From assembly GCA_963736005.1 (NCBI GenBank), contig CAVTNB010000003.1:1-64000 (forward strand): a DNA stretch of 64,000 nt, in the 5' to 3' direction. Every line of letters begins with the position of its first letter. Position 1 is the first letter of the stretch. This document shows positions 16,894 to 41,102 of this stretch, piece after piece. The notes below the pieces were generated by a model. That model did not search any database and was not told the DNA's origin. It saw only the letters and a program-made list of their open reading frames with translations. Position numbers and translations under genes: made by a program. Source of the DNA: an uncultured Pseudomonadota bacterium (GTDB lineage: Bacteria; Vulcanimicrobiota; Vulcanimicrobiia; Eremiobacterales; Eremiobacteraceae).

Positions 16894-17931
16894 CTACGTC
16901 TTTGAGCTTCCGAAGTGGGCCGCAGGCACCATCGAGCGGCTACGCGTACGGCGCTGCTCGAGGGGGCGCACGATGGCATTCTCAATCGCCCGGTCGAAGA
17001 CGACCTTCGTGAGAAAACTATCTGCGGCAGCAAGGCCACGCGAGCCCGTCACTCGTCGAAGAGCGCCTCGAGCGCGTCCGAAAAGGCGCATCCGATGACT
17101 GTCGCGGAAGTGGCGATGGACTGCGAAGTCCTCATCGGTGATGCTGAGCCGGTGTTTTTCGGCGAAACGCTGTATGCTTGGTTCCATCCACATATTGCTC
17201 CATCGCAAGAGAAAACACGGCAGATCAGACCATGAGTATGGTGGTGGCGCGAGGTGTGTGACAACAGCCGCCGGCTCAATATAGACCGAGCCCCCTGCAT
17301 TGACAACCCCAAGACAAAAATCATTGTGGTCTAAGAATGAAATAAGGCCTTCATCAAGCGGACCGAGGTGGTCGAAGACGTCTCTCCGTACTAACATGCA
17401 GTGAAACTCAACCAGATCGATGGGTTGGCGGATGAGCTGCGCACGCACTCGCGAAACCGGCGTGTTTCCGAAGCGATGACGCTCGTGCAGGCGCCGAAGT
17501 CCGTGTTCTTCAACGATCTTGAACTCAGCGCCGGCGGTATGGATGATTTGTTTCGCAGGGTCATCGATGAGATACAGGGGCCCGACTGCCCAAGCACCTG
17601 TTTCTTCGGCACAAGCAACGAGTTTGTCCAGCCAGCCCGGCGTGACGCTCACGTCGTTATCGACGAACGCTACATATTTCGTGCTCACGTGGGGTAAGCC
17701 GAGATTGCGCGCTTCGTTCGCCCCGAGATAGTAATCCGTTCGAATCAGCGTAAATCCACGCTTGGCCGCTTGGTCTCTGAGATAGCGGGCCAAGGCAGGT
17801 GGGGAATTTCCATCGATGTAGACCAGCGGTACGGCTGGATTCGTGCAAGTAAGGATACTGTCAAGCGAGATCTTCGCCTTGCTAAATTGCTCTCGGGGCG
17901 TAATGACAATAGTAGTTGCAGGTTCAGGCAT
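16894..17931 (-). CDS. Glycosyltransferase family 2
   Basis: ITPRE, YIDGNS, ARNLG, AFVDND (DxD), VEFHCML, DHNDF; ATG 17931 overlaps upstream stop. Confidence 0.85.
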   Translation of the reverse strand: MPEPATTIVITPREQFSKAKISLDSILTCTNPAVPLVYIDGNSPPALARYLRDQAAKRGFTLIRTDYYLGANEARNLGLPHVSTKYVAFVDNDVSVTPGWLDKLVACAEETGAWAVGPLYLIDDPAKQIIHTAGAEFKIVEEHGLRRLHERHRFGNTPVSRVRAQLIRQPIDLVEFHCMLVRRDVFDHLGPLDEGLISFLDHNDFCLGVVNAGGSVYIEPAAVVTHLAPPPYSWSDLPCFLLRWSNMWMEPSIQRFAEKHRLSITDEDFAVHRHFRDSHRMRLFGRARGALRRVTGSRGLAAADSFLTKVVFDRAIENAIVRPLEQRRTRSRSMVPAAHFGSSKT

Positions 17932-18985
17932 CGCGTTCCGCCTGCAAAGCGACCCGCGGCGTCGCCGATGCACCCGCGAGCCTTTGTCTCTCGAGGCGAG
18001 CGATGATCGTCGGTTCGAGCACGCGCTCAAACAGCGCATCGATCAACCTATCTGCGATCCATCGTCCCCGCCAGCCCATCGTGCGCTGCGCTGCTCTCTG
18101 CACAATATGCAATAATCTTCGCCGCTCGGCGTTTCGGAAACGAACACCACCTTGTAACATGTAATCGTTTTCGCTCAGACGCCATTTCTTTGCAAAGTGA
18201 CTAATGCTTGGGCGAAGCCACACGTCGCTCCATCGGAGCAAGAACAGAGCAAGATCCGACCATGCAAATGGTGGCGGGGCGACAATCACGACCACCGCAT
18301 CGGGTTCCCAGTATATGGAACCCCCGGCTTGCGTAACGTCGAGGCAAAAATCGCGATGCTCTTGGAACGAAGTGAATGCTTGATCAAAAGCTCCGAGACG
18401 GTCAACCACATCTTTTCGAGTCAGCATGCAATAGGACTTGGCGTAGCCGCAGAGACCCCGTTTCAACCCCCCGCGCACGTCGGCGAGTGGCTTGCCGGCA
18501 AAAGGGGCCGTCTCATAGAGACGACGCTCGCCTTGTTCATCTATGATCTTGAGATCCGGACCGGCCGAATAGGTGATCGGCTCTTCCAAGTCACCAGTGC
18601 AATACAGAGGTCCCACGACCCAAGCTTGCGTCTCCTCCGCGCACCGGATGAGTGCTCCCAACCATCCGGGTGTGACCAGCGTGCAATTGTCAAGAAAAGC
18701 AACGTACTTGGTCCGGACGTGACGCATGCCGATATTGTGCGCTTCGCTCGACGTTAGATAGCGGTCGCACCGAATGAACGTAAAGTTTCGCTTGCGGGCT
18801 TGTTCTTGAAGATAGCGACGGACGTGCGGCGGTGAGTTGCCGTCAACATAGACCAGCTCAAAGGGTGGCTGCGTGAACGCATAGATACTTTCTAGCGTGG
18901 CCTTTGTGGCGCTGAAATGTTGCCACGGCGAGACGATGATCGTGACGCTCTGATCGGGCATCAGTTGCGCGCTCGGGCTTACCAT
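17924..18985 (-). CDS. Glycosyltransferase family 2 (paralog of 16894-17931, DxD altered)
   Basis: YVDGNSPP, AFLDNC, VTPGWL, EHRDF; ATG 18985 overlaps the SDR stop. Confidence 0.8.
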   Translation of the reverse strand: MVSPSAQLMPDQSVTIIVSPWQHFSATKATLESIYAFTQPPFELVYVDGNSPPHVRRYLQEQARKRNFTFIRCDRYLTSSEAHNIGMRHVRTKYVAFLDNCTLVTPGWLGALIRCAEETQAWVVGPLYCTGDLEEPITYSAGPDLKIIDEQGERRLYETAPFAGKPLADVRGGLKRGLCGYAKSYCMLTRKDVVDRLGAFDQAFTSFQEHRDFCLDVTQAGGSIYWEPDAVVVIVAPPPFAWSDLALFLLRWSDVWLRPSISHFAKKWRLSENDYMLQGGVRFRNAERRRLLHIVQRAAQRTMGWRGRWIADRLIDALFERVLEPTIIARLERQRLAGASATPRVALQAERDA

Positions 18986-19803
18986 CGGATTACCTTGCCG
19001 TCCCACCAAAAGAGTCCAGTGGCGCTGCTCGGTGAGCGCGTCGCCAGAAAAAACACGGTGTCGGTGGAATCCGCAGGATCGATTTCAGCATTTGGACCGC
19101 CGATCTTCGTCTTGACCCACCCGGGATGGACGCAATCGACCATCACTCTACGGGCTCGCAGGTCTGCCGCCAACGATTGGGTGTAAGAGTTCAATGCTGC
19201 CTTACTGAGACGATACGCAGGCGCGTCACCATCCGATTTGCGCGACAACTGACCCATCACCGAAGAAATATTGATGATACGGCCGCCTTTCGCCATGATC
19301 GGAGCGAACGCAGCGCAAGCGTGCAGCGCGCCGTAGAGATTGACGGCAAGCGTGCGCTGGACGACTATATCATCGATGGCGCTTGCATGCATTTCTCGGT
19401 CCTCATCGAGAAACACACCCGCGTTGTTGACGAGGATGTCCACTCTTTCATATTGTGTGCCCACGTCGAGGGCGAGCTTCCGCACTTGAGATTCGTCGCT
19501 GACGTCAGCGATGCGCAGATCGACGCGCAGGCCTTGCGCCGCAAGTGCATCCACCGCGGCACCTCCTTCGGGATCGATGGCAACGAGAATGCAGCGAGCC
19601 CCCGCGTGCGCAAATGCACTTGCGATTGCCAGACCGATACCACTGCTTGCTCCCGTGATGACGGCAACTTTGCCCTTGAGCGCGTTGCCTGCAGCGATAT
19701 TTCTTTGTACACGCTGAATTCTCGAAGCCGCAACTTGCGAACGAGCTGACCCGTAAAGTCTCCCAAGGAGGGCGCGAGCCCGCGTCATCGCAACTTTAAA
19801 CAT
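18979..19803 (-). CDS. Short-chain dehydrogenase/reductase (carbonyl-reductase-like)
   Basis: TGASSGIG, NNAG, YRLSK (YxxxK), HPGWVKT. Confidence 0.92.
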   Translation of the reverse strand: MFKVAMTRARALLGRLYGSARSQVAASRIQRVQRNIAAGNALKGKVAVITGASSGIGLAIASAFAHAGARCILVAIDPEGGAAVDALAAQGLRVDLRIADVSDESQVRKLALDVGTQYERVDILVNNAGVFLDEDREMHASAIDDIVVQRTLAVNLYGALHACAAFAPIMAKGGRIINISSVMGQLSRKSDGDAPAYRLSKAALNSYTQSLAADLRARRVMVDCVHPGWVKTKIGGPNAEIDPADSTDTVFFLATRSPSSATGLFWWDGKVIRW

Positions 19804-20042
19804 CCATTGTGTCAGCGATCGAAGCCGAAGCTGCCATAGTCACCTTTTTTTCGCTCGGTCTTTGCGTATTCCCGTGCCCGGGCAAGCCCATGAACCAAGT
19901 TGGCGTGAGCGAATGGGACCTCCGACAATAGGGAGTTGGGCTGATGGCTCCATGCGGGCCAAACGTCCTATTCGCCGCACTAAAAAGTCAAGTTGTTCTT
20001 TCCGGCGAATTCATTTTGACACACTTATGTTTGGGAGAGCTT

Positions 20043-20456
20043 ATGCTGCGGAGTGAGCGAGTAACCCAACGTTACGCGTTTCGACCTGACGTTGTTGCGA
20101 CCATGCTCGAAGATGGAGCGGTGCTGCTCGATCTCGACACCAAATATTTCTATCGACTGAATCGAGCAGGTTGGGCCATCGCCCAACTCTTCGAGACTGG
20201 TGCAACGTTGCAAGACGTGCATGCCTACTGTCAGACGTTGGGCGCTGCTTCCTCAGATGCGGACGCCATCAGTTCGTTGGTTGAGGAGCTCTCACGCGAC
20301 AATCTCATCGAAGCGGCGAGCCAGCCGGGGGACGAGCCGGCGCCACGAGAGCCCTTGTCGGTTCCTTGGTCGACGCCCACCATCGAGAAACAAGCAGAAC
20401 CCATGCAGCGTGTTATCATCAGCGCATTCGATCCAAGCGTGCCGCTGGTGGAATGA
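20043..20456 (+). CDS. PqqD-family RiPP recognition element (lasso B1-like) with C-terminal leader-like extension
   Basis: ATG 20043 after GGGAGAG; EDGAVLLDLDTKYFYRLNRAGWAI...SLVEELSRDNLI fits the PqqD/RRE pattern; ~45 extra residues follow. Confidence 0.85.
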   Translation: MLRSERVTQRYAFRPDVVATMLEDGAVLLDLDTKYFYRLNRAGWAIAQLFETGATLQDVHAYCQTLGAASSDADAISSLVEELSRDNLIEAASQPGDEPAPREPLSVPWSTPTIEKQAEPMQRVIISAFDPSVPLVE

Positions 20457-20465
20457 GCACGAGCG

Positions 20466-21470
20466 GTGTCCCTGATCCGCGATGAAATCATAGCCAGGGA
20501 TTTTTGCTGCGGTCCTCTTCAAATAACGCTGCGGGCACAAGACGCCGATCTGTACGCTAAGATCGGGGAGACGTTAGAGCTCTACGATCTTACGTGGGCG
20601 CCGCCACGTCGGCCGGTCAATATCTACGCTCGCAAATCGAATGCCCGTACGCCCGTCTCGAATGGCGATTACCTGCGCTGTGCTCGCATGCTTGTCGACC
20701 ACGTGCCCGCTGGCCTTAACGCATCGACGACCTCGGGTGCGCGCGCGACAGCAACCTTCACCGACCTCGGTGAAACGTGGCACCTCACTGTTCCCGACAG
20801 CCTCGTCGAGGCGGGGAAGCTCGAAGAACTCGAAGACGTCGTTAGTCTCGTTCTAACGACCGGCTGGAGACGCGGTGGTTGGACGCCGATTCACGCCGCC
20901 GCAGTGCTCAAGGAGCAGAGGTGCGTGCTCGTTTGCGCTCCGACCGGAGGCGGCAAGACGACATTAACCGCTGCACTGGTGAGGCGTGGCTGGCAAGTGC
21001 TAGGCGATGACAAGATCCTGCTCCGCATGCGCGACGGGCAGCCTGAGGTTGCGGCACTCTTACACACGTTCAATCTCCACCCAAAGAGCCGCGAATGGTT
21101 CCCAGAAGTGGGCGACCTCGAACGGCTGCCGCGCTATTCTGTGTGGACTGAAAAACGCAAAGTTAGCGTCGTCTCGATTTGGTCGCATGCGCCTGCACAG
21201 ATTGCCATGCCGTCTGTGCTCATCTCCTTGCAGCGGAGCATGGACTATGTCAATGCGCTCATCGAGCCATTAAGCCAGCCCGAGGTGTTGACGACCTTGT
21301 TGAAGCAAACCGTGATACCATCTGACCGCGCGACCGCCAGCGGCATTGTCTCGACCGTGGCGCGTACATCGACGCATTTGCACGGTCTGTCCGTCCAGGT
21401 TCCGACAGATGCTTACCGCGATCCAGCCTTCCTGGCGGCGCTCGAAGGCGCGATCGAGCAACTGCGGTGA
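20466..21470 (+). CDS. HPr-kinase-related P-loop kinase (lasso-cluster kinase type)
   Basis: IHAAAV...APTGGGKTT...LGDD motif set. Confidence 0.8.
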   Translation: MSLIRDEIIARDFCCGPLQITLRAQDADLYAKIGETLELYDLTWAPPRRPVNIYARKSNARTPVSNGDYLRCARMLVDHVPAGLNASTTSGARATATFTDLGETWHLTVPDSLVEAGKLEELEDVVSLVLTTGWRRGGWTPIHAAAVLKEQRCVLVCAPTGGGKTTLTAALVRRGWQVLGDDKILLRMRDGQPEVAALLHTFNLHPKSREWFPEVGDLERLPRYSVWTEKRKVSVVSIWSHAPAQIAMPSVLISLQRSMDYVNALIEPLSQPEVLTTLLKQTVIPSDRATASGIVSTVARTSTHLHGLSVQVPTDAYRDPAFLAALEGAIEQLR

Positions 21471-22375
21471 CAACCGTTAGCGTCATCGTTCCCGCTTACA
21501 ACGCAGCTCCGACAATCGGCGCAATGCTCAACGCACTCCTGCATCAGATCGACGCACCTTCGAACCTCGAGATCATCGTGGTCGATAACGGCTCGACCGA
21601 TGGTACGCGCGAGGTAGTGCGACGCTTCTCGGGCGTCACGTTGCTCGCTGAAAGCAAGCGCGGCCCATCAGCGGCACGCAACCGCGGCTTGCACGACGCA
21701 ATAGGTGACCTCATCGTCCACCTTGACGCCGACACGTTGCCAACACGTGCCTGGCTAAGAAATCTCATCGCGCCGTTTTCCAAACCTGAAGTCGTGCTCG
21801 CTGCTGGCCGAACACTGATCTTCCATCCGACCACTGCAGTCGAACGCTACATCGCGGGCGCTGGGTTGTACGAGACGGATCGGGCCATTAGCCGGTTGCC
21901 GTTCCCGTTTGTGCCCTCACTCAACATGGCGGTCCGTCGAAGCGCGGCAGTCAGCATAGGGGGTTGGGCTGAAGACCTGACGACCGCTGAAGACGTCGAC
22001 TTCTCGCACCGCCTACTAAAGATGTATCCTGTCGACATCGCCTATGCTTCGAACGCGATACTTTTTCATCGCGTCCGCGCCACGCAACCGGAGCTCGTGG
22101 CGCTTGCGCGCTCGTACGGCCAAGGCATAGCGCGGATGTATCATCGCTATGGCGACGAAGTGGGCTGGGATGCCATCAAGACCGCAAAGATCAAGAGCCG
22201 GCTTGCGCTACGCGCGCTCATCACGGCAACGTTACGCTGTGCCCAAGCAGTCCGACTTGCCACGACTGCGCAAGTTGAATTCTCCCACTGTCATTTCGTA
22301 TGGTCACGCAACTTCGCTCAAGGCTTTTTTGACGAGTACTATCAGCAACAGCAAACTGCGGTGACACGGTGGTAG
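21467..22375 (+). CDS. Glycosyltransferase family 2
   Basis: VIVPAYN, VVDNGSTD, ARNRG, LDAD, AEDVDF; GTGA overlap with the kinase. Confidence 0.92.
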   Translation: MTTVSVIVPAYNAAPTIGAMLNALLHQIDAPSNLEIIVVDNGSTDGTREVVRRFSGVTLLAESKRGPSAARNRGLHDAIGDLIVHLDADTLPTRAWLRNLIAPFSKPEVVLAAGRTLIFHPTTAVERYIAGAGLYETDRAISRLPFPFVPSLNMAVRRSAAVSIGGWAEDLTTAEDVDFSHRLLKMYPVDIAYASNAILFHRVRATQPELVALARSYGQGIARMYHRYGDEVGWDAIKTAKIKSRLALRALITATLRCAQAVRLATTAQVEFSHCHFVWSRNFAQGFFDEYYQQQQTAVTRW

Positions 22376-22380
22376 GGGGC

Positions 22381-22866
22381 ATGCTCGCGCCCAAATGGAC
22401 ACCGCTCGGATTTGCGCAGCGACTGCGGCGGATCTTTCGCGAGCCTTCAGACTTTTGGTTTGCGGCGACGATGTGCCACTTCATGTGGCACGCGCCCGAG
22501 ATGCTGCGCCGGCGTAATATGCGCGTGTTTCTCGACGAGCTACGTGCGCTTCCGCGACCCAAGGCAACCAGTGCCGAGGCGAGTTTGGAGAGGGTCCAGC
22601 GTCTGCGCCAACTCTGTCTTCGCCTCAAGGTGCTGCGATCGAGAGACAATTGCTACGTCCGTGCCCTCACGTTGTATCGCTTTCTTGACACGGGGCCGGA
22701 CCACGTCAGCATTCATTTTGGAATCGAGCAAAAAGAAGACCCGTTGGAGCGATTGCGCGGTCATGCGTGGGTCTCAGTCAATGGAAGACTCTTTGAGGCA
22801 CCGCCGGACGGCGTGCTGGCAAGAACTAAAGAGGTGCCTCTGGCTCCTGCGGACCTTCGCCAATGA
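22381..22866 (+). CDS. Lasso peptide B2-type transglutaminase-like cysteine peptidase
   Basis: NCYVRAL...FG...GHAWV...E/D, matching the Cys-His-acidic triad pattern of Transglut_core3; ATG after GGGGG. Confidence 0.88.
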   Translation: MLAPKWTPLGFAQRLRRIFREPSDFWFAATMCHFMWHAPEMLRRRNMRVFLDELRALPRPKATSAEASLERVQRLRQLCLRLKVLRSRDNCYVRALTLYRFLDTGPDHVSIHFGIEQKEDPLERLRGHAWVSVNGRLFEAPPDGVLARTKEVPLAPADLRQ

Positions 22867-23993
22867 AAGAGCAGCGGGCAAACGAGCGAGGGGGCTTCGC
22901 CGCGCTTCTCGCGGCCACCACCGCAATCGAGCAATGCAGGCCGGACAACCTGGTCGCCGCCCTGCACATGACGCCACCCCAAGCGCTTCTCAGAGCGGCC
23001 GCGCGCCATCGCTGCCTGGGCTATCTGAGGCGTGGGATCTTGGAATTGGGCGTCCGCGATGATCGCGCAAAGGCACTTGCCGACGCGGTACGCGAGTATG
23101 CAAGCAAAGCAGCGATCCAGGCGTACGCGGTGCGCATACAGCTCAACCAGCTCGTTGAGACGCTAGACGCCGCGGCTGTTCCCTTCGCTCTCCTCAAAGG
23201 AGCGGCGCGCCTCTTTCGGGGCAACAAAGAAGCTGACTACAGTACAATGTACGATCTCGATATTCTCATTCCCAACGTTGAGGTGCACAGGGCGGCCGAC
23301 GTGCTCCAGCATGCTGGTTACCGCGCAATCGTTCCCACGCGAGCACTCGCGCGCTACTGGGCACGACATCATCACATCGCGCCGCTCCACCCACAAGGGC
23401 CGGGGCTTCCCGTCGAACTCCACGTGCAACTTGCCCGGCCCGGGATGCTCTCCATGCCGACGGACTGGCAAGCGTGCGAGCCATACTTCGAACGCGTCGT
23501 CGGACCGGCTGCCCAAGCTCAATGCCTCGATGCGCTCGGAAGCGCAGTACATCTTGTGATCCATGGCGCCGGGATCAAACGTTTGCACGACGCTACCATG
23601 CTGTCGAAAATCATGCGCAGCGACAGCGACATACCGAAACGCGTTTCGGTGGCAATTGCATCCGAACGTTGGCAGCCCGTTGCGTTGCAGTCCGTTGCGG
23701 CGTTGAGCAGCCAAATGGCAGGCTTGCAGCCCAGGATGACACCGCAGGTCGAACGCTACCTCGCATGGGTGATGCGACGTGAAGATCTTTCACCGTACGT
23801 TCGCGACCGATCGCAATTCACCGACGCATGGTACAGCAACGGGGGCAAGCTTTGGGGGCCGGCCACGCGCGAAGCTTTGCCAACCGCTGAAGCCGAACGA
23901 GACATCGTAACGTCTTCCGCGCGGTTTGTGCTGCGGCTCATCGGACGAATCATCACCGGCGTTCTCGCCGCGACGTCTATGGCGCGCTCGTGA
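22863..23993 (+). CDS. Nucleotidyltransferase family protein (NTP_transf_5-like)
   Basis: LLKG...DLDILI...VELH motifs; ATGA overlap with B2. Confidence 0.88.
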   Translation: MKEQRANERGGFAALLAATTAIEQCRPDNLVAALHMTPPQALLRAAARHRCLGYLRRGILELGVRDDRAKALADAVREYASKAAIQAYAVRIQLNQLVETLDAAAVPFALLKGAARLFRGNKEADYSTMYDLDILIPNVEVHRAADVLQHAGYRAIVPTRALARYWARHHHIAPLHPQGPGLPVELHVQLARPGMLSMPTDWQACEPYFERVVGPAAQAQCLDALGSAVHLVIHGAGIKRLHDATMLSKIMRSDSDIPKRVSVAIASERWQPVALQSVAALSSQMAGLQPRMTPQVERYLAWVMRREDLSPYVRDRSQFTDAWYSNGGKLWGPATREALPTAEAERDIVTSSARFVLRLIGRIITGVLAATSMARS

Positions 23994-25351
23994 CTTCGAC
24001 TACTCCCAGCACAACGATCGCCCAAACGAGTATGCGAACGTTCGTCGCGCGCCTGATCGTCACCGTACTCTCGGTGGTCACCGGTATCGTCGCTGCGAAG
24101 TGGCTTGGTCCCATCGGCAAGGGTGCCTACAGCGGCACGATCATGCTGGTTTCGATCGTGATGGTCGCGCCGGCCGGCATTAGTACTGCCATCACGTACG
24201 CGCTCACCAAGCAGCGTCGAGATCTCTCCGAACTCTTGCCATCTGCCGGAGTGCTCCTAGTGTTGATCTCCGCTTTGGCGTGGATCGGTGCGTTAGCCTG
24301 GGGTCTCCTGCGCGGTTGGAATCCGGTACTGTCGATCTTTGTGGCGGCCGTGCCACCCTCGATCGTACTCTCGTGGCAAGGCGGGTTGTATGTCGGCCTT
24401 GGCCGCTTACGCAATCTCAACGCGCAATTGGTAGCTTTGGCTCTCGCCACTCTGTGTGCAGTGCTCGCCGTCGTCAGCGTCTTTCATGGGAGTGCAATCG
24501 GTGCGTTGTGGGCGTGGGTTGTCTGTCTTTACGGCGCGGCCTTTGTGGTCATCTGGCATGTGTTCGCGCTTAGCCGCCGGCGCTCGCGCGCACTACCAGT
24601 TGGGCAGATCACCTCTGGTCTAGTTCGCTTTGGAACTCAATCCAGCGTGAATCTTTTCTTGGGAGCGGTGAATTACCGCATTGACTCCATCATCTTGATC
24701 GCCCTTATGGGAACCGCGACCTTCGGAATCTACTCGATTGCCGTGGGTTTCGGCGAGCAGCTTTTCTCATTGACTCGCCCCATTACCGCAGCCATCAGCC
24801 GCGATATCGGGATCAATGATGCAACGGCTTCCGCTGCTATAACGGCCAAAGTTATCCGAACCTGTACGGCTCTCGTTGCAGCGGTTTCTGTGGTCGCGTT
24901 TGTTTTTGGACCTTGGCTTATCGACGCGGTCTATGGAACGCGCTTTCGCGACGCCACGATACCCCTCCGTATCCTCATACCTGGCATCGTCGCGTTCTCG
25001 ACCGCAGGTACTTTCGCCGCCTTCTTCATCCTCCAAGTCGGGAGGCCGCTGATCATATCAGCAGTCAACCTTGCGATGATCGTGGTCCAGGCGCTCATGT
25101 GTTTCGCCCTGGTCCCTCGCTTCGGCATGAGCGGCGCGGCGTTCGCGTCAACCATCACCTACGTCTGTGGAGCGTTGATGAACACCGCGTGGTTTTGCCG
25201 AATGACGCGAACTAGTTTCTGGGATGTTTGGATCGTTCGACCCAATGACATTGAAGCAGTACGCAGAGGAATGCTTGAGAGCGTTGACTTCGCGGCACGA
25301 CGTTTGCGGCCGCGCACCGCGCAGGGCGCAACCAGGAGCGATGCTCGCTAG
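23990..25351 (+). CDS. Wzx/MOP-superfamily oligosaccharide flippase
   Basis: ~12 TM; WLGPxxxG, RIDxIIL, GIYSIA, LVPRFGMSGAAFAS; GTGA overlap with the nucleotidyltransferase. Confidence 0.85.
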   Translation: MTSTTPSTTIAQTSMRTFVARLIVTVLSVVTGIVAAKWLGPIGKGAYSGTIMLVSIVMVAPAGISTAITYALTKQRRDLSELLPSAGVLLVLISALAWIGALAWGLLRGWNPVLSIFVAAVPPSIVLSWQGGLYVGLGRLRNLNAQLVALALATLCAVLAVVSVFHGSAIGALWAWVVCLYGAAFVVIWHVFALSRRRSRALPVGQITSGLVRFGTQSSVNLFLGAVNYRIDSIILIALMGTATFGIYSIAVGFGEQLFSLTRPITAAISRDIGINDATASAAITAKVIRTCTALVAAVSVVAFVFGPWLIDAVYGTRFRDATIPLRILIPGIVAFSTAGTFAAFFILQVGRPLIISAVNLAMIVVQALMCFALVPRFGMSGAAFASTITYVCGALMNTAWFCRMTRTSFWDVWIVRPNDIEAVRRGMLESVDFAARRLRPRTAQGATRSDAR

Positions 25352-30466: not shown

Positions 30467-31516
30467 TTATTTGGTGCATGTGAGGTCGATGCGGAAGTCT
30501 GCCGGTTTGGGATAATGGGGCATGCCGGTCAGCGCGTTTTGCGTTGCGGCGTTGAAGGTGACGAGCAAGCGAACCGGCTTGTCGGTTCCGTTCAGACCAC
30601 CCCCGGCGAAGAGCTGTGAGAACGTATATGACCCGCCGGGCGGAAAAACAACATTGCGAGAACCCAGACCGAAGCCGCCTACCACGTTAAATGATGAAGC
30701 ATTGTTACCGCTCTGTGTGGCAAGAAACTCGTCGGACACATTTGATGGCGCTTCTCCCGGACCGTACAACCCACCGGGCCATAGCTTGCGATTGGTGACG
30801 TTGACCCATGTCTGCGTCACGCGCCAGCCGTTTTGGTCTTCTGGCTTCGCATCGGGTGGACTCGGCGAAAATGCGGTCACGCGCATCTTCCATACCCCGT
30901 TGCTCATCCATTGGTTCATGCAACCTGGGGTCGCAACAATCTGGTTGGACCCACCTTCCGCGTTGGCGGCCGCTCCGGTCGCGACGCAACCCAGGTTGAA
31001 GTGAAAGTTATACTTTGAGGTAGTGAACTGCGGCTTCGACTTCAATTGGGCAAGCAGTACTCCGTTGAACGTGATCTCAAGGCCCTTTGGTTTATTCGAC
31101 GGATCAACGTTGGAATTATAGAATACTTGTTTATACGTCAACTGCCCAGCGGGCGCAAACGTATTGTTGCCCACATTTGCCATTGACATACTGGCCGCGG
31201 TCGACTCCTTCACACTGATGGCACCGCTTCCGAGTTCTAGTCGCTGGTCTTGGAGCTGCGCATCGCCGGGGGAGGTTTCTCCCGACGTTCCGTTGCGCCA
31301 CACTTCGGTGACTTGCCAGCCAACTTGCTGACTACCGTTCATGTATGGCTCAACGTTCGTGACTTTCACGCGCCACACCCCATTGAAGAGCCATTGATTC
31401 ATGCAGCCCTCGCGGCTGTTCGCGTCGCCGAAACTCGCCGAACGCGCGAGCAGTACGACGCCGCAAGCAACGGCGAGAACGATGAACGACGTTGACCTTT
31501 GAATCGCGTTGCGCAC
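30467..31516 (-). CDS. Secreted hypothetical protein with two GCMNQW repeat domains (paralog B)
   Basis: GTG 31516 after AAGGAG; signal peptide; two GCMNQWxxNGVW repeats. Confidence 0.8.
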   Translation of the reverse strand: MRNAIQRSTSFIVLAVACGVVLLARSASFGDANSREGCMNQWLFNGVWRVKVTNVEPYMNGSQQVGWQVTEVWRNGTSGETSPGDAQLQDQRLELGSGAISVKESTAASMSMANVGNNTFAPAGQLTYKQVFYNSNVDPSNKPKGLEITFNGVLLAQLKSKPQFTTSKYNFHFNLGCVATGAAANAEGGSNQIVATPGCMNQWMSNGVWKMRVTAFSPSPPDAKPEDQNGWRVTQTWVNVTNRKLWPGGLYGPGEAPSNVSDEFLATQSGNNASSFNVVGGFGLGSRNVVFPPGGSYTFSQLFAGGGLNGTDKPVRLLVTFNAATQNALTGMPHYPKPADFRIDLTCTK

Positions 31517-31550
31517 CGAGGAATCTCCTTTGAAGCTCAGATCTCTAGCG

Positions 31551-32588
31551 CTATTTTGTGCACGTGAAGTCGATGCGGAAGTTTGCTGGAGTCTTATAGT
31601 GAGGTAAGCCGACGCGCGCATTCTGCTTTGCCGCATCGAATTGAACGAGGAGTTTTACTGGCTTGTCTGATGGATTAAGCGGCGCCCAGCGAAAGCGCTG
31701 TTGGTATGTAAACGAACCGCCTGGAGGAAAGGTCCGGAAAACGAGCTGCTCTTGGTTCATTGACGTTCCTGCGCTGTTTGTTGCGGGTGTATTTTGACCG
31801 CCCGCAGTAATGAGGTACTGATCCTGCATGAGAGAATCACTGGGTGCGAGTGGCCGGCTTGTGAGGTTTACCCAATCTTCCGTTATCATCCAACCGATCT
31901 GCGGGCTCGTCGGATCGTTGTTGTTGTCGGGAGCGATCGCGGTGGCGCGCATCTTCCAGACGCCATTGGAGATCCATTGATTCATACAACCCGGTATCGC
32001 GGCCATCTCGCCCGACCCGCCTTCTGCTTGCGCGGCCTTTCCGGTCGCAACACAACCCAGGTTAAAGTGGAAGTTGTAGTGCGCGCTGGTGAACTGTGGC
32101 TTCGACTTAAGCACTGCTAGCTTTGCGTTGTCGAAAATAATATCCACAGCTTGGGGCTTGTTGGACGGATCGAAGGTTGGGGCTAGGAAGATCTGCGTGT
32201 ACGTGAATTGTGCAGCCGGCGCGAAAGTATGGAAACCCACGGTCCCCATCGACAAGGTTCCTGTGTTGGTCGTCGAGGCAAGGAGCGACCCATTATTGAG
32301 CGTGAGCTTTTGGTCTTTGAGGAAGGAATCGCCGGGTGCGAGTTCTTGACTCGTGCCGTTGCGCCACACTTCGGTGACTTGCCAGCCTGACGGCGGACCA
32401 CCGTTCACATAGGGCTCGACTTTGGTGACTTGCACGCGCCACACGCCGTTGAACAGCCACTGATTCATGCAACCTTCACGGCTGTTGACATCACCGACGA
32501 CGGCCGATCGTGCGGCGAGTAGCGCCGCAATCATAATGACGGCCACAAGCGCCGTTCTCTTCATCAGGAAGTGTCGATCTTGACGCAC
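31551..32588 (-). CDS. Secreted hypothetical protein with two GCMNQW repeat domains (paralog A)
   Basis: GTG 32588 after AAGGAG; signal peptide; same repeat layout as neighbour. Confidence 0.8.
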   Translation of the reverse strand: MRQDRHFLMKRTALVAVIMIAALLAARSAVVGDVNSREGCMNQWLFNGVWRVQVTKVEPYVNGGPPSGWQVTEVWRNGTSQELAPGDSFLKDQKLTLNNGSLLASTTNTGTLSMGTVGFHTFAPAAQFTYTQIFLAPTFDPSNKPQAVDIIFDNAKLAVLKSKPQFTSAHYNFHFNLGCVATGKAAQAEGGSGEMAAIPGCMNQWISNGVWKMRATAIAPDNNNDPTSPQIGWMITEDWVNLTSRPLAPSDSLMQDQYLITAGGQNTPATNSAGTSMNQEQLVFRTFPPGGSFTYQQRFRWAPLNPSDKPVKLLVQFDAAKQNARVGLPHYKTPANFRIDFTCTK

Positions 32589-32737: not shown

Positions 32738-34102
32738 TCAAACCTCTAGAGCAAAGATCTTGAGCGCTTCGTCACGATGGCGCTCCATGAGCGATCGTGT
32801 GTCACCCTCAACGTTCAGTCGCAGGAGCGGCTCGGTATTTGAAGGGCGAACGTTAAGCCACCAGTCTGCCATCTCCACGGTCACGCCGTCGAGGTGATCG
32901 ATACCCGCTCCTCGCGCCGCGTAGAACGCTTCGACTTCATATAACGCTTTCTGCGCATCGCTCACCGTTGAGTTGATCTCCCCGGACCGAAAACGCGTGT
33001 CGATAGGGGAGACGAGCTCGCTCACCGTTTGCTCCGTTCGACTCAAGAGCTCGAGACAGTGCATGAGTGCGATCATCCCGGAATCGGCGAACCAGTTCTC
33101 GCGAAAATAATAGTGCCCCGAGTGCTCGCCGCCAAAGGGAATATTCTGTTCTCGCATGATTGGCTTGATAATCGAGTGGCCGACGGGCGAACGCACCGGA
33201 ATCCCGCCGGCGCGGGTGATAACTTCCGGCACAGAGCGGCTGCAAATGAGGTTATAAAGGATCTTGGCGCCCGGAAAACGCTTGAGCGCGTTTAGCCCAA
33301 TGAGGGCCGTCATGATTCCACCATCAATGAGCCCGGCTTTCTCGTCCACGATGAACATACGGTCGGCGTCGCCATCAAACGTGACGCCAAGGTCACAGTG
33401 ATGGGCCAGCACTGCTGCTTGCAGTTGCACCTTATTGGCCGGATCCATTGGATTCGCCGGATGATTGGGGAAACTGCCGTCGAGCTCAAAATAGAGCGGT
33501 ACGATTTCGCACGGCAGCTGCTTGAAAACGACTGGTGTCGTGAGCCCCCCCATGCCATTGGCTGCATCCACGGCGATCTTCAATGGCTTGATCGCATGTC
33601 GGTCGATCATCGAGAGGCAGTGTTGGGCAAAATCATCGAGAATATCGCGCTGAGAAATTGAGCCACGAGTGTCGCTGCGCGGAATGTTTCCTGCAATGAT
33701 CCGATCGCGCATCTCTGCTAATCCGGTCTCCAGCGACACGGCGACCGCATCTTTGCGGCAAAACTTCAGACCGTTGTAGTTCGCAGGATTGTGCGACGCG
33801 GTGATCATGACCCCGCCGTCAAAGTCGAACTTGCCGGTAGCAAAATACAGCGCGTCGGTTGAGACCAGTCCGATGTCGGTGACCTGCGCACCCTGATCGA
33901 CCGCACCCTCAGCCAATGCCGCAAACAGCCCTTGACCCGATGCTCGCATGTCACGTCCGATGACGATGTGCGATAAGCCAAACTGTGCGACAAACGCGCG
34001 GCCCACTTGATAGACAAAGTCTCGCGTCAGCTCGTCGGGAATCGTACCCCGGATATCATAGCGCTTGAAAAGTCCGAAGATTGTCGTCGCAAGATCCTGC
34101 AC
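32738..34102 (-). CDS. Phosphomannomutase/phosphoglucomutase
   Basis: YDIRG, TASHNP, DGDADR, GEHSGH, RPSNTEP. Confidence 0.95.
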   Translation of the reverse strand: MQDLATTIFGLFKRYDIRGTIPDELTRDFVYQVGRAFVAQFGLSHIVIGRDMRASGQGLFAALAEGAVDQGAQVTDIGLVSTDALYFATGKFDFDGGVMITASHNPANYNGLKFCRKDAVAVSLETGLAEMRDRIIAGNIPRSDTRGSISQRDILDDFAQHCLSMIDRHAIKPLKIAVDAANGMGGLTTPVVFKQLPCEIVPLYFELDGSFPNHPANPMDPANKVQLQAAVLAHHCDLGVTFDGDADRMFIVDEKAGLIDGGIMTALIGLNALKRFPGAKILYNLICSRSVPEVITRAGGIPVRSPVGHSIIKPIMREQNIPFGGEHSGHYYFRENWFADSGMIALMHCLELLSRTEQTVSELVSPIDTRFRSGEINSTVSDAQKALYEVEAFYAARGAGIDHLDGVTVEMADWWLNVRPSNTEPLLRLNVEGDTRSLMERHRDEALKIFALEV

Positions 34103-34111
34103 GTCTACACC

Positions 34112-35203
34112 TCAAGGACTGAGCGTCAAGCGGCCTCGCCCAACTGCTCTGTCCCCCATGCCATAGTAGATGTCATAGACTCGATCGCCGACATCTGGTC
34201 GAGGATCGATCGCCGTAGGGAATACTACTTCTCCAGCCTTACCGCGCACTTCGATGGGGAGTTCTGGCACAAAAAGCGGCTGTGGCGAACGATAGAGAAC
34301 CTTGTCGATGTGCGACGCACTGTGCACAATAACTCCCGCGCAGTACCGCAAGCGCGTCGCGCCGTTTCTCTCGCGAAGCTGATCCACTCCGTGGATAAGG
34401 GCAAGCCAACCCTCACGGATGCGCACCGGGGGAGTGCCGCCGCCGACTTTCACCTGGCCCCAGCTTGCGGTCGGCAGCTCCAGGGGGTGTGCTTCAATGA
34501 CTTCGCAGATTTTTCTGAGATCTTTGCGGACTGCATCCAACGAAACGTATCCGATCGCGATATTTTCGCGTCGTTCGGGCGCGCGCTTCAACAAGACTTT
34601 GGCGCCCGCTGCCCCGTGCTTGCGCCACAACGCCCAAAGCGTCGGACGATGGTAGAGCGCGAGCGACGGAATGCCACGTGGCGAGAGCACAGGCTCGGGG
34701 AAAAAGGCTGCATCTTTGTCGGCGAAGCTCGTTCTCTGTTTGTGAACGCACATCAATCCAATGCGCTGCCAGGCATTGCCATCTTTCGATACCGCAACAG
34801 CCACCTGCGGTCCGGACGGTCCGAAGGCGACGTACGCCATCACATAACGATCGAGCACTGCGATGTAGGTTACCCGCGGGTCCTCGCAACCGTGTCCATC
34901 GGAGTCATTCCTCATCTCGTACGGCGCTTGTGGTTCGAGCGCGAAACCGGTTTGATCAAAGGTCATCTTCCCACCCTTGTGCTCATGGGCGCGAAAGCGA
35001 CCGATGCGCGAGACGTTGCCGGGCGCAACCATGCGGGGAAAGAGCTGCAACGCACCGTCTCGCAAGCGCGTGCAGGCCGGATTGAGAATGCCTTCGCGGT
35101 CGACAAGACGACGGTCTGGCTTCAGTATCGTGCCGAGACGAGTGAACTGCGCGCTGAAGCGAGCGAGGGGCTTATCGATGGCGTGGGACGTACGTCTTCT
35201 CAG
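34112..35203 (-). CDS. Glycoside hydrolase family 130 (mannoside phosphorylase-like)
   Basis: EGILNPA, GCEDPR, DKDAAFFP, YHRP, KVGGG, VVFP, YYGMGD; frame stays open upstream of the TTG at 35065, so start is uncertain (CTG 35203 proposed). Confidence 0.82.
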   Translation of the reverse strand: MRRRTSHAIDKPLARFSAQFTRLGTILKPDRRLVDREGILNPACTRLRDGALQLFPRMVAPGNVSRIGRFRAHEHKGGKMTFDQTGFALEPQAPYEMRNDSDGHGCEDPRVTYIAVLDRYVMAYVAFGPSGPQVAVAVSKDGNAWQRIGLMCVHKQRTSFADKDAAFFPEPVLSPRGIPSLALYHRPTLWALWRKHGAAGAKVLLKRAPERRENIAIGYVSLDAVRKDLRKICEVIEAHPLELPTASWGQVKVGGGTPPVRIREGWLALIHGVDQLRERNGATRLRYCAGVIVHSASHIDKVLYRSPQPLFVPELPIEVRGKAGEVVFPTAIDPRPDVGDRVYDIYYGMGDRAVGRGRLTLSP

Positions 35204-35610
35204 CTGCGTTTCCGACGTTCATTCTCCGCGACTCGCGCCTTCACTAATTTCTTCACGAGACCGGCAGGCAGAGGCTTATCCAAAGGAAAGCGGATGGTGC
35301 CTTTCGATGTGTAAAAGCTCTTCAGGTCGTTTTTGAACGCTCTGATCACTGTCATGCTCATCGGAAAGAAACTGCAATGGTTCGAAAACGCGGCGAACGC
35401 CACCACAGATCCTTTGTACTTGAACGTTGGGATCCCATAGCTGATAGCCTCGGTTGCCTCCTTGGGCACAGCCGACCGGATCATCGCACGCACTTTCTTC
35501 AAGGTAGTGCGGGCGGGCTCTGGGACACCCGCCAGGTATTTGTCCACCACCTTGGGAGATACATTGCTTTTCGCCACCGATCCGCGACTGCCGGACTTCG
35601 GTTTTTTCAC
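35200..35610 (-). CDS. DUF1801 (YdhG-like) protein
   Basis: VDKYLA...EAISYGIPTF...SKGTIRFPLDKPLP. Confidence 0.88.
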   Translation of the reverse strand: MKKPKSGSRGSVAKSNVSPKVVDKYLAGVPEPARTTLKKVRAMIRSAVPKEATEAISYGIPTFKYKGSVVAFAAFSNHCSFFPMSMTVIRAFKNDLKSFYTSKGTIRFPLDKPLPAGLVKKLVKARVAENERRKRS

Positions 35611-35637
35611 CGAGTTACTGGCTCCCTTCTTGATGAG

Positions 35638-35826
35638 CTAGTGATCGACAAACTTCGATATTTCGTCCATCGTTGGATCGAGCCGCAAATCTTCATGCGC
35701 GTATTTGCGGTCTTCATGTCCGCCGGGAACCGTCACTCGCACGAGAATCTCATGCGGATGCACCTCTTTGACAATGCCTTCTTCCTTCGTCCCATCAATG
35801 TAGACCTTATCGCCGATCTTTAACAT
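35638..35826 (-). CDS. Small KOW/SH3-like hypothetical protein (62 aa)
   Basis: MLKIGDKVYI...GIVKEV; GAGGAG RBS. Confidence 0.75.
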   Translation of the reverse strand: MLKIGDKVYIDGTKEEGIVKEVHPHEILVRVTVPGGHEDRKYAHEDLRLDPTMDEISKFVDH

Positions 35827-35845
35827 GTCTGCTCCTCTGGGCTGG

Positions 35846-36376
35846 TTACGTACGTCGACGTGCCGGTTCAAAGCGGAAGTTGACCTCAGGGGTAATCCCA
35901 CGGGCAAGCGTCTGATAGACGACGCAATATCGTTCCGTTAATTGTTGAAGCGTAGCAGCCTCTTCGGGCGTCGTGTCCGCGTCAAGGTCGAAGTGAAGTC
36001 GAATATTTTTGAAGCCGACCGGCACGGTTCGATCGAGGCCCAACGTGCCTCGGAAGTCCAGATCACCCTCGGCAGATACGGTTCCACCGCGCAACTGAAT
36101 GTTTTTAGCCGTTGCAACCGACCGCAGCGTCACGCCGGCACACGCGACCAGTGCCTGCAACAACATATCACCCGAACAAGCGAACGTTCCATCACCGCCC
36201 GTTGCCGGGTGCAGCCCGGCTTTCACAAGCGTGCGTCCAGTCTCCACGCTGCAACTAAGCCCCTCGGGGTCATCGATCCGGCCGCTTGCTCGCAGCGTCA
36301 CGAGCGCAGCACTCGGCTCGGTGCGATACCGATCCTTGATGGGCGCCTGCAGAGTGCGCAAACTTTCAGTATCCAC
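35846..36376 (-). CDS. OsmC family protein
   Basis: GLHPATGG..CSGDMLL.ALVACAG, DLDFRGTLG, TERYCVV. Confidence 0.92.
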   Translation of the reverse strand: MDTESLRTLQAPIKDRYRTEPSAALVTLRASGRIDDPEGLSCSVETGRTLVKAGLHPATGGDGTFACSGDMLLQALVACAGVTLRSVATAKNIQLRGGTVSAEGDLDFRGTLGLDRTVPVGFKNIRLHFDLDADTTPEEAATLQQLTERYCVVYQTLARGITPEVNFRFEPARRRT

Positions 36377-36441
36377 GCGGGCCCTCCATTCCTGGCAAGC
36401 GTTCAGTTACGACCTGACGATTATTGATCCTGGGCGCAGCT

Positions 36442-38433
36442 TTATGAGTACAACACGCGCGACATGAGCAGCGTCAGTGCCCGCCGGAGTTGAACCGCCA
36501 CGTCCGCGTTCTCGCTCTCATCGATTTTATCGAGCGCCGCTTCGATCCAACGAAGCCCCTCCGCCTCGACGCCCCCATGCCACCAGACCATCTGCAAGGC
36601 AACTGCAATCGAGCCACCGAGGGCTACCTCTTGATCTCTGACAAGTGCCCAATCCATGGCCGCGCGAAAGTTTTCAACCTCCGGCTCGAGTCTTGCAAGC
36701 CATTCGCCCAGCGGCATCGCGCCAAAAGTTCTTTCCGCCTCTTGTGCGACGCCTTGGAAGTATTCGGCGTGCCGACGGCCGAGCCGATCGCGCTCCCCGC
36801 TCGCCGCGAGTTTCGCCAGCGCGTACTGGCGAGTGCACTCAAGCATGCGGTAGCGCTCCAGATTGGCGCTCGTGTCCACCACGAGCAGCGATTTATCCGC
36901 AAGGGAAGCGATCAGATCGAACAGATCTCTGCGCTCGATACCATCGCCCGTACACACAAAAGCCGCGGCATCGAGGGTAAAGCTACCGGCAAAAACCGCC
37001 ACGCGATTGAACAGCACCCTCTCCTCAGGCGAGAGTAAATCATAGCTCCAATCAAAGAGGGCGGTCAGCGTCTTCTGCCGGGGGAGCGCGGTGCGGCTGC
37101 CCCCGGTAAGAATCTCGAAGCGCTCGTTGAGGCGCTGCGCGAGGGTGGATATGCTCATCACCTTGACGCGTGCTGCAGCGAGTTCGATCGCAAGGGGAAT
37201 ACCATCGAGCCGGCGGCAGATATCCGACACGATGAACGCATTGTCGTCACCGAGTCGAAAGGATTGGTCGACGAGCGACGCCCGGTCGGCGAAAAGGGCC
37301 ACCGCACCGAAGCTCAGTGCAGCCGCTGGGGCGAGATTCGCCACCTTATCGGGGACCGCTAGCGAAGCGACGCGAAGCACTTTTTCCCCGCTCACTCCTA
37401 GCGCCTGACGTGAGGTGGCAACGATACGAACATCCGGACAATGCCGATGAATCGCATCCGCCAGCGCGGCAACTGCCTCCAGCACGTGCTCGCAATTGTC
37501 GAGTACCAAGAGAAGCTGCTTGCCTTTGAGGAACTGCATCATCGACTCGTCGATCGCGCGTACTTGTGCCTGGCTTACACCCAACGCTTTGGCGACCACG
37601 CTCGACACCAATTCCGAACCCGTGATTGCTGCGAGATCGGCGACCCATACTCCGTCGGGAAAGCGTTCGAGAACTTCGGCACCAAGCTGTGCCGCCAATC
37701 GCGTCTTGCCGACGCCACCGGCTCCCAGGAGCGTGACCAAACGGTGCTCGGCGAGATGCACCTTCAAATCTTCAAGATCTTGTTCGCGGCCCCGGAAACT
37801 CGTAACTTGAATGGGCAGATTGTTGGGCAGCGTGTCCAGCGAATTGAGCCGCGGGAAATCACTTGACAGACCCTTTATTGTTAGCTGCCAGACGTGCTCG
37901 GGGTGAGCAAGATCCTTGAGTCGATGCGCGCCGAGGTCGATGAATCTCGTCTCGTGCGGTGCTTCGTTGTGCACGAGCTCGTAGGTTGCACCTGACAGGA
38001 GAATCTGCCCGCCGTGACCGATGGACATAAGCCGCGCAACTCGGTTGACGCTCGGACCAAAATAATCAGCATCGCGTTCCTCCGCGTATCCGGTATGCAA
38101 GCCGATTCGAACTCGCAAGCCATGGACCGCTGAAAAATCTTCCGCGCTGAGGGCGCGCTGAGCGTCGAGTGCAGCTTTGACTGCGTTTGGTGCTGTCGCG
38201 AATGCGGAACAGAATGCGTCGCCAACCGTCTTGAAAATATGGCCACCATATCGCGAGATGGCCAAGCGCATCAACTGTTCGTGGCGCGCAACGGCCACCT
38301 TCATTGCCTCGTGATGTTTTTCCCAGCGCTCGGTGCTGCCTTCGATGTCGGAGAACAAGAAGGTGACCGTGCCCGTAGGCAACGACACCGGGTGTTTGGA
38401 TTGCCGTTCCTCGGCCCGAGTGTTATGTGGCAT
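36442..38433 (-). CDS. Class III cyclase - STAND ATPase protein, short form lacking most of the TPR region
   Basis: FSDIEGST, KTVGD, DYFGPSVNRVARL; GAGGVGKT; LDNCEH; LDGIPLAIELAAAR; ends at 663 aa. Confidence 0.88.
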   Translation of the reverse strand: MPHNTRAEERQSKHPVSLPTGTVTFLFSDIEGSTERWEKHHEAMKVAVARHEQLMRLAISRYGGHIFKTVGDAFCSAFATAPNAVKAALDAQRALSAEDFSAVHGLRVRIGLHTGYAEERDADYFGPSVNRVARLMSIGHGGQILLSGATYELVHNEAPHETRFIDLGAHRLKDLAHPEHVWQLTIKGLSSDFPRLNSLDTLPNNLPIQVTSFRGREQDLEDLKVHLAEHRLVTLLGAGGVGKTRLAAQLGAEVLERFPDGVWVADLAAITGSELVSSVVAKALGVSQAQVRAIDESMMQFLKGKQLLLVLDNCEHVLEAVAALADAIHRHCPDVRIVATSRQALGVSGEKVLRVASLAVPDKVANLAPAAALSFGAVALFADRASLVDQSFRLGDDNAFIVSDICRRLDGIPLAIELAAARVKVMSISTLAQRLNERFEILTGGSRTALPRQKTLTALFDWSYDLLSPEERVLFNRVAVFAGSFTLDAAAFVCTGDGIERRDLFDLIASLADKSLLVVDTSANLERYRMLECTRQYALAKLAASGERDRLGRRHAEYFQGVAQEAERTFGAMPLGEWLARLEPEVENFRAAMDWALVRDQEVALGGSIAVALQMVWWHGGVEAEGLRWIEAALDKIDESENADVAVQLRRALTLLMSRVLYS

Positions 38434-38576
38434 CAGATGATGCTGATTGTTCGGCTGTTGACCGCTGCGGCCCTAGCCGCGCTTGCCAAGCCGGCGGTGC
38501 TCACGATATAATACAGGTGCCCCAAAATGGTCGTAAAGTCGATCTTTTCGTGCGCGAAATTGATGGAGGGATTTAC

Positions 38577-38849
38577 ATGCCTCGATATATGGTGGAACGT
38601 ACTTTCAAGGACGGGTTATCGATTCCGGCCACGAACGCGGGAGCCGATTCGTGCCGAAGTGTCGTTGACAAAAATGGAGACCTCGGTGTGACATGGGTCC
38701 ATTCGTACGTCTTAAAAGACCACAAGAAGTCGTATTGCATTTATGATGGTCCGAGCGAGGATGCGATCCGCAAAGCGGCCGAACGTAATGGACTACCGGT
38801 CGATAGCGTTGCGGAAATCAGCGTGCTGGACCCGTACTTCTACCACTAG
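38577..38849 (+). CDS. DUF4242 (SCO4226-like) family protein
   Basis: MPRYMVER...WVHSYV...YCIYDGPSEDAIR..A...GLP.D; GGAGG RBS. Confidence 0.88.
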   Translation: MPRYMVERTFKDGLSIPATNAGADSCRSVVDKNGDLGVTWVHSYVLKDHKKSYCIYDGPSEDAIRKAAERNGLPVDSVAEISVLDPYFYH

Positions 38850-38877
38850 TTGGCCGCTCAAAAAGGGGAGATGCGCG

Positions 38878-39525: not shown

Positions 39526-39555
39526 GGTACATGGTTGATTGAGGGGGCGTCTCTC

Positions 39556-40035: not shown

Positions 40036-40129
40036 AGAGCGCTTTAGCCAGTCATGGGCATAAGGAGGGCAGTTTCAGCGGTTCGACGCCTCTGTGCCCT
40101 GCCTTAAGGGTCCAACTTCTTCGAGAAAA

Positions 40130-41019: not shown

Positions 41020-41043
41020 GTTGTTGCCTCCTCTCGTGAGAGC

Positions 41044-41078: not shown

Positions 41079-41102
41079 GTCCCGATGGAAAGGCTTCGCG
41101 AG

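Follow-up and report, generated by a model that had tools for sequence, protein, structure and literature searches.

Contig C3 comes from a genome of 2.84 Mb that is 84% complete, and its first 64,000 nt (the window) carry, at positions 16894..25351, nine genes that an earlier note had read as lasso-type machinery for a peptide made on ribosomes and modified after translation (RiPP) without a lasso cyclase. All nine open reading frames (ORFs), six on the plus strand and three divergent on the minus strand, lie where that note had placed them. The plus-strand operon opens with a 137-aa protein (20043..20456) in which a RiPP recognition element (RRE) of the lasso B1/PqqD type is followed by a linker, a leader-like stretch and a core-like stretch. 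It continues with a 334-aa HPr-kinase-like kinase (20466..21470), a family 2 glycosyltransferase (GT2) that we call cassette type 1 (21467..22375), a lasso B2-type cysteine protease (22369..22866), an NTP_transf_5 nucleotidyltransferase-fold enzyme (NTase) of the PsmN/LppN/BsfN family (22863..23993) and a MOP/Wzx-like flippase (23990..25351).

The tight coupling of these genes could be read directly from the sequence. Stop and start codons overlap as GTGA at 21467, ATGA at 22863 and GTGA at 23990, and 9 nt (20457-20465) separate the RRE and kinase genes. The GT2 and B2 genes are 5 nt apart with an ATG start for B2 at 22381; the junction becomes a 7-nt overlap if B2 starts at GTG 22369. The locus has no cyclase gene, and the three PF00733 matches of the genome are all on other contigs.

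The precursor-like tail of the RRE protein

At 137 aa, the first protein of the operon extends about 45 aa beyond a discrete RRE. The RRE domain itself (about aa 10-90; 20070..20312, plus strand) consists of three strands and then three helices in the AlphaFold2 (AF2) model (pLDDT 83-89 over aa 11-90). It matches NF033530 (E 9e-8) and, below cut-off, PF05402 (E 7e-4), and its fold is nearest to the lasso RREs TbiB1 (Z 11.2, root-mean-square deviation 2.3, 85 residues aligned) and TfuB1 (Z 9.8). A variable linker (aa 91-108; 20313..20366) leads to a leader-like stretch containing a WxxPxI motif (aa 109-126; 20367..20420) and to 11 core-like residues followed by the stop codon (aa 127-137; 20421..20456), with Ser, Asp, Ser and Glu at core positions 1, 4, 6 and 11.

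The alignment comprised the query and 110 of the 115 homologues collected; five truncated or atypical sequences were excluded. Mean column conservation (n=111) is 0.81 in the RRE sheet, falls to 0.24 in the linker, and rises again to 0.71 over aa 109-126 and 0.91 over aa 127-137. In 111/111 sequences the stop codon follows the FDP motif at a constant distance. Asp130, Pro134 and Glu137 are invariant (258/258 tails), and position 125 is Ile, Met, Val or Leu in 242 of the 258.

Trp109, Pro112 and Ile114 match the lasso-type leader [Y/W]xxPx[L/V/I]. Given that this WxxPxI fits the lasso RRE-binding consensus [Y/W]xxPx[L/V/I/A/F/Y] (PMC13381572), we counted it in favour of a precursor. When Trp109 is numbered 1, the tail has Gln or His at 9 and Ser127 at 19. 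These are the offsets of the printed consensus of the LPP precursors, discussed below, in which His occupies position 9 and the Ser at 19 is the phosphorylated residue (PMC13381572). The AF2 model contains a strand at tail aa 114-118 (block pLDDT 81), and the WxxPxI stretch may fold back into the cleft of its own RRE.

We also searched for a separate substrate gene in 144 loci, namely 62 from genomes, the 80 best of 121 from metagenomes, the window and a second cassette copy in the same genome. Their 16,700 small ORFs include no recurring free-standing precursor of the cassette. A leader motif occurs in 189 of these ORFs; the sole match in the window lies outside the operon, and none is present inside the nine-gene locus. 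Credible precursor ORFs recur only in L040/L115 and L067/L157; they belong to a neighbouring two-kinase LPP-like cluster and were rejected. A profile built from the tail alone finds two copies in the whole genome, both fused to an RRE, the second being the paralogue. It is apparently the final 29 residues of the RRE protein that serve as the substrate of the cassette. The earlier interpretation was incomplete in this respect: no substrate was given in it, and the RRE protein's own tail is the candidate that the evidence favours. Borosins and BURP-domain peptides likewise carry the core peptide in the same chain as a protein that handles it. Their fusion partner is the modifying enzyme, whereas the cassette has a non-catalytic RRE that would serve several enzymes in trans.

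RRE-tail fusions are also found more widely (P0135-P0166, P0177, P0195, P0206, P0210, P0224, P0231-P0237 and P0250-P0256; loci L168, L171, L172 and L173). Their tails are of the PFDPQLPLAE type, the LLLDPIH type ending in GWP, and the LALDPP type, all with a leader-like stretch and Asp-Pro. The four wider-family loci encode glycosyltransferases and mostly a kinase and an NTase, with B2 not nearby. Four proteins (P0160, P0164, P0171, P0172) contain two or three tandem RRE-plus-leader units, the Asp-Pro tail being present on the last unit only.

A conserved cassette without a linked cyclase

An RRE was called in 143 of the 144 loci. These represent 114 distinct loci at 90%, of which 51 are long (at least 6 kb downstream and at least 3 kb upstream), and an all-against-all BLAST was performed on 2,821 filtered ORFs (of 8,745). 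Every long locus has a GT2, 50 have the kinase, 49 have B2 and 46 have the NTase; the four enzymes occur together in 45/51. The genes are usually arranged as RRE-kinase-GT2 (type 1)-GT2 (type 2)-B2-NTase. The operon recurs without a cyclase as a conserved cassette. The B2 beside the fusion is the sole B2 in most of 51 genomes.

Judged by record titles, the cassette occurs in Eremiobacterota, Chloroflexota, Alpha-, Gamma- and Deltaproteobacteria, Actinomycetota, Planctomycetota, Gemmatimonadota, Acidobacteriota, Spirochaetota, Myxococcota and Ignavibacteria. Its close homologues carry Eremiobacterota/Vulcanimicrobiota names, and within its own phylum the fusion is patchy, being found in 20/301 genomes and in 10/61 near relatives (a count that includes the unpublished genome G008). 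The GC content of the cassette (0.57-0.60) matches that of the genome (0.586) and so gives no sign of recent transfer; a search of a plasmid collection returned no match.

No AsnB-like ORF was detected at E<=10 among the 8,745 ORFs of the 144 loci, in a search where the genome's own AsnB queries found each other as a control. We also searched 50 of the 62 genomes in full, the 12 omitted having mostly short or duplicate loci. In these 50 genomes PF00733 never occurs within 29 kb of fusions belonging to this family; the nearest match, weak and partial, is 29.8 kb away and the next 34.7 kb. No PF00733 match at E<1e-10 was found in 22/50 genomes, a figure that includes metagenome-assembled genomes (MAGs) whose completeness is not given. 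In two separate clusters (G073:C16, G078:C178) the same search does detect cyclase-like genes next to B2. The two full PF00733 proteins of the window's genome are amidotransferase-type AsnB by TIGR01536 (over cut-off) and lie in polysaccharide loci on other contigs; against the lasso cyclase model NF033535 they score 241 and 298 bits, where the cut-off is 525. These results uphold the proposal of a cyclase-independent pathway. A decayed lasso cluster, which the earlier note had considered, was not found: cyclase-free homologues are the norm, and the operon is a conserved cassette. A cyclase acting in trans was rejected, given that the genome's own AsnB proteins are amidotransferases and that no linked PF00733 occurs in the 50 genomes.

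The core-like residues are also incompatible with a lasso fold. The lasso ring needs an acid at core position 7-9 with a tail behind it (PMC10368454). Since a cut after Ile126 puts the acids of the core at positions 4 and 11, Glu being the last residue, this core cannot form a lasso. A later cut could bring Glu to 7-9, yet it would remain the last residue.

The genome has four RRE loci. One is a second, rearranged copy of the cassette at L009:624-11678 (G000:C2 ~33600-44700), which encodes in order GT2 type 2, B2, a GT4, a sulfotransferase, a phosphoesterase, a GmhB-like phosphatase, a 546-aa NTase extended at its N terminus, and then the RRE fusion (50% identical), the kinase, GT2 type 1 and an SDR. 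Frameshifts break up its kinase gene into three reading frames where the 96%-identical contig L167 has an intact one, and the broken gene is either a pseudogene or an assembly error. The two loci may complement each other, as the second keeps GT2 type 2 while its kinase is broken. The same genome also has an LPP-like cluster at L013:7008-11338 (G000:C1 ~995-999 kb) with an RRE, an NTase and two HprK-like kinases; in the relatives L040, L067, L115 and L157 a cluster of this kind, which includes a small precursor ORF, directly adjoins the fusion cassette.

Two further groups of loci differ in content. In the subgroup L047, L056 and L100, tail position 126 is Lys and the loci have four GT2s and a GT4, with no NTase within the fetched flanks; a polysaccharide deacetylase was confirmed in L047 and L100. 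An Ignavibacteriales MAG (L170:383-5916) encodes a discrete RRE, a ThiF-YcaO protein, B2, NTP_transf_5 and an ABC ATPase. Its 6.7-kb contig has no cyclase, and B2 and the NTase are paired there with a cyclodehydratase.

Cassette enzymes, transporters and neighbouring genes

The B2 protein matches PF13471 (E 8e-12) and, above cut-off, NF033537, and its catalytic residues are intact across homologues: Cys95 in 74/75, His132 in 73/75 and Glu/Asp143 in 71/75. Ten ORFs fuse B2 with another cassette domain (GT2 in eight, NTase in two), although some of these may be assembly frameshifts. A model of the complex between B2 and the RRE fusion scored 0.70 (runs 0.48, 0.70 and 0.75) against 0.31 for the best control, with at least 56% of contacts agreeing between runs and a partner pLDDT of at least 75. 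The mark we used is reached by 116/157 solved complexes and 2/215 mismatches and is roughly applicable to this pair. In the model, tail residues 124-129 contact B2 residues 94-96 and 128-133, which span Cys95 and His132. The contacts centre on the 126/127 bond, suggesting that B2 cuts after Ile126, give or take 1-2 residues, and that Ile125 would then be the -2 residue. BsfB2 cuts after a penultimate Ile, accepting Ile at -2 (PMC10368454). The best-placed contacts of the model, however, lie on the RRE sheet, where B1 and B2 are known to interact, and the passing score may therefore show likeness only.

Matches of the kinase to HprK-related families are weak and below cut-off (TIGR04352, E 8e-11; TIGR04355), but its catalytic motifs are conserved (His143 in 118/119, the P-loop Lys164 in 117/119, Asp181-Asp182 in 116/119). 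The cassette GT2 matches PF00535 (E 6.5e-31). For all three GT2s of the locus the best NCBIfam match is MftF (TIGR03965), at E 5e-43 for the cassette GT2, whose 147 bits are far under the 280-bit cut-off. MftF glycosylates a RiPP-derived product, mycofactocin. There is this likeness to the mycofactocin system, but no radical SAM or other mft genes are present here. Most relatives have two GT2 genes between the kinase and B2; the window copy has lost the second, leaving a clean gap of ~900 bp at the GT2/B2 junction in comparison with L026. This gap is also present in metagenome contig L088, which is 95% identical, and an assembly error is thereby ruled out.

The NTase matches PF14907 (E 1.4e-19) and retains Lys112, Asp131 and Asp133 in at least 90% of 52 sequences. 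Its model (pLDDT 92.8) resembles ANT(2'') (Z 11.7) and LnuA (Z 11.1) and, more weakly, FKRP (Z 7.6, a middling value); both nucleotidylation and sugar-phosphate transfer would be possible on such a fold. Foldseek returned nothing at E<=0.001 for this protein, and a wide search returned the general fold only.

The earlier note listed the flippase with the operon's other genes, but the case for it as part of the pathway is weaker than stated there. The protein matches PF13440 below cut-off (E 0.002), and its Atlas neighbours are polysaccharide flippases. As counted with profiles built from cassette loci only, the 51 long loci have a MOP transporter in 26, an ABC-2 permease in nine, an MsbA-type ABC transporter in three and no recognised exporter in 13. 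The flippase is an accessory, outside the conserved core. Neither the nine ORFs nor the families recurring in more than three loci include a priming phosphoglycosyl transferase, Wzy or Wzz/Wzc, so that the flippase lacks the companions of a Wzx/Wzy polysaccharide locus; priming, polymerase and chain-length genes elsewhere in the genome could act.

The divergent operon is present on the minus strand as described, by family matches, and consists of an SDR (18979..19803), a GT2 (17924..19009) that is 48% identical to its neighbouring GT2, and that second GT2 (16894..18039). Its place in the system is weaker than had been claimed: the SDR is a lineage-specific accessory, and the arrangement is confined to close relatives. 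GT2s similar to the divergent pair also occur in L037, inside its RRE operon, and in L121, on the upstream side. Promoter and terminator scans stayed at chance level (5 promoters against 3.6 expected and 9 terminators against 10.2). Elsewhere in the window, at 30467-32588 on the minus strand, two adjacent and clearly similar ORFs (389 and 345 aa) have signal-like N-termini and internal repeats with paired Cys.

Proposed pathway, rivals and significance

The closest known system is LPP (lppA-K-B-S-D-N) of Paenibacillus alginolyticus (Popov et al. 2026, PMC13381572). LPP and the cassette both lack a cyclase and combine an RRE with an HprK-like kinase and NTP_transf_5; both have a leader of the YxxPx type (His at 9, Ser at 19) and polysaccharide genes nearby. 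A cyclase-free combination of RRE, kinase and NTase, as the earlier note had proposed, is supported, yet with LPPs published in 2026 it is not new in itself. LPP differs in its separate precursor with a long and variable core, its SipW-like serine peptidase, its MsbA-like exporter and its occurrence in Bacillota. The cassette instead has an RRE-fused precursor with a short, near-invariant core, a B2 cysteine protease, GT2s within its conserved core and a variable exporter. No SipW-like (signal peptidase I) ORF occurs in the window operon, which has B2 in its place, and the exporter there is MOP-type.

Clusters of the psm (pseudomycoidin; Zyubko et al. 2019, PMC6993621) and paeninodin types share B1, B2, an HprK-like kinase and a PsmN-type NTase with the cassette, but they include a cyclase C, an ABC exporter and a precursor of its own gene that carries a ring-forming acid and a C-terminal Ser; the psm gene list, unlike the cassette, shows no dedicated GT2. 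PsmN is required for the addition of one or two hexoses to phospho-pseudomycoidin (PMC6993621), a precedent for hexose on phospho-Ser. Bradymonas sediminis has a bsf cluster (Duan et al. 2023, PMC10368454) that likewise shares a B2 that accepts Ile at -2 and the BsfN NTase, and differs in its cyclase BsfC, its separate precursor and a set of seven genes listed without GT2 or flippase. Compared with lasso clusters in general, the cassette has the B1-type RRE, an intact B2, the lasso-type leader motif and Ile125 at the modelled -2 position, but it has neither a linked macrolactam synthetase nor a ring-forming core. It would operate like an LPP or pseudomycoidin tailoring pathway yet belongs to neither kind. 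Neither a natural RRE-precursor fusion nor this cassette was found in the accessible literature, outside which lay most subscription journals and supplementary tables; the supplementary tables of RRE-Finder, Foldseek-RRE, daptide and LPP could list these proteins. The architecture is apparently undescribed.

We propose, with a probability of about 0.6, that the cassette makes a self-presenting RiPP precursor that receives phosphate and sugar and is released by cleavage as a linear phospho-glycopeptide, the first of two products that had been suggested for this locus. All of the chemistry, as well as the acceptor residue, the site of cleavage and the export step, is here drawn by analogy with Psm, Bsf and Lpp. 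The 137-aa protein would be adapter and substrate at once, its WxxPxI folding into its own RRE cleft and presenting the 11-residue C-terminal core. The kinase would phosphorylate a core serine, Ser127 or Ser132, much as LppK (PMC13381572) and, with RRE assistance, BsfK (PMC10368454) phosphorylate a Ser near the core start. The NTase and the cassette GT2s would then attach sugar to that phosphate or beside it. B2 would dock on the RRE sheet and cut near Ile126/Ser127, releasing the peptide, which in this lineage might leave via the MOP transporter.

Several observations weigh against this proposal. The invariant tail residues are Asp, Pro and Glu rather than Ser; Ser127 is missing in 20/258 tails and Ser/Thr132 in 23/258, and 15/258, a divergent subgroup, have no Ser or Thr in the last 11 residues. 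In L037, where neither a kinase nor B2 was found over 3.8 kb upstream and 10 kb downstream, the tail is fully conserved, and L120, L127 and L155 also pass straight from the RRE fusion to GT2s (and to the NTase where the contig reaches) with the tail unchanged. Distant fusions with other tails (L171, L173) adjoin a kinase, glycosyltransferase and NTase with no nearby B2, and discrete RREs of ~90 aa occur among distant relatives. Tail conservation was partly selected for, because the homologue queries contained the tail. AF2 confidence for aa 121-137 on their own is low (pLDDT 51-53), and the complex score, driven mostly by the known RRE-B2 sheet interface, may reflect lasso-complex likeness. 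Finally, LppN gave no visible product in a heterologous test (PMC13381572).

The invariant acids and proline, the Ser-free tails, L037 and the distant fusions lacking B2 leave room for two other explanations. One, the other product suggested earlier, is an exported peptide-primed glycan, in which the tail would be a protein-bound carrier replacing undecaprenyl pyrophosphate and the product mainly glycan. The kinase would form Ser-P or Ser-PP, the NTase-fold enzyme would add the first sugar, glycosyltransferases would extend it, B2 would release it, and a flippase or ABC transporter would export it to the surface. The loci vary in their cassette GT2s (one to four) and in GT4, deacetylase and sulfotransferase genes around a fixed peptide, which fits such a scheme, as do a MOP, ABC-2 or MsbA-type transporter in 38/51 loci, the presence of the phospho-polyol transferase FKRP among the NTase fold matches, and the location of LPP and paeninodin clusters in capsule loci (PMC13381572). 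We nonetheless regard it as improbable, because a flippase occurs in just 26/51 loci and 13/51 have no recognised exporter. In addition, several bare cassettes sit amid housekeeping genes (L061 and L072 beside pnp/ribF-like genes), the core has no polymerase, chain-length regulator or priming transferase, and each product would cost one 137-aa protein.

Slightly less probable still is a tail that serves as a built-in pseudo-leader or docking arm in the RRE cleft, activating the kinase, NTase and glycosyltransferases toward another acceptor, for example a surface glycan or small molecule, with B2 cleavage being regulatory. The invariant Asp, Pro and Glu do resemble a docking motif, tails without hydroxyls exist, and both L037 and the distant fusions keep a tail where B2 is missing. 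Set against this are the intact catalytic residues of B2 and its presence in 49/51 loci, the leader spacing and Ser offset, which equal those of real precursors, and the lack of any other recurring substrate gene. By far the least probable is a decayed lasso cluster, or a cyclase or precursor acting in trans. The genome is 84% complete and has two full PF00733 proteins, and an AsnB gene lies ~8 kb from the distant-type fusion L173; however, the L173 protein, like the genome's own pair, is a glutamine-amidotransferase AsnB, and the empty cyclase searches and the absence of a core Asp/Glu at 7-9 backed by a tail stand against such a cluster.

Precursor-finding tools seek small separate genes, so that a precursor at the end of an RRE protein would be missed. 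Given that 21% of PF05402 proteins exceed discrete-RRE length without other annotation (PMC12710340), the RRE-fusion family may account for part of these long proteins. The cassette is also a compact test system for the role of the PF14907 NTases (LppN, BsfN and PsmN among them), and it bears on why lasso-type kinase and NTase genes occur in polysaccharide loci. In a genome with four RRE loci, a substrate tethered in cis may be a simple guard against cross-talk between RRE pathways. If the tail does act as a peptide carrier, a phospho- or pyrophospho-linked oligosaccharide would be assembled on a peptide instead of a lipid and released by a repurposed lasso protease, and RRE-precursor fusions would form a large family, with three or more types of tail and members in many bacterial phyla, for which the cassette would stand as prototype.

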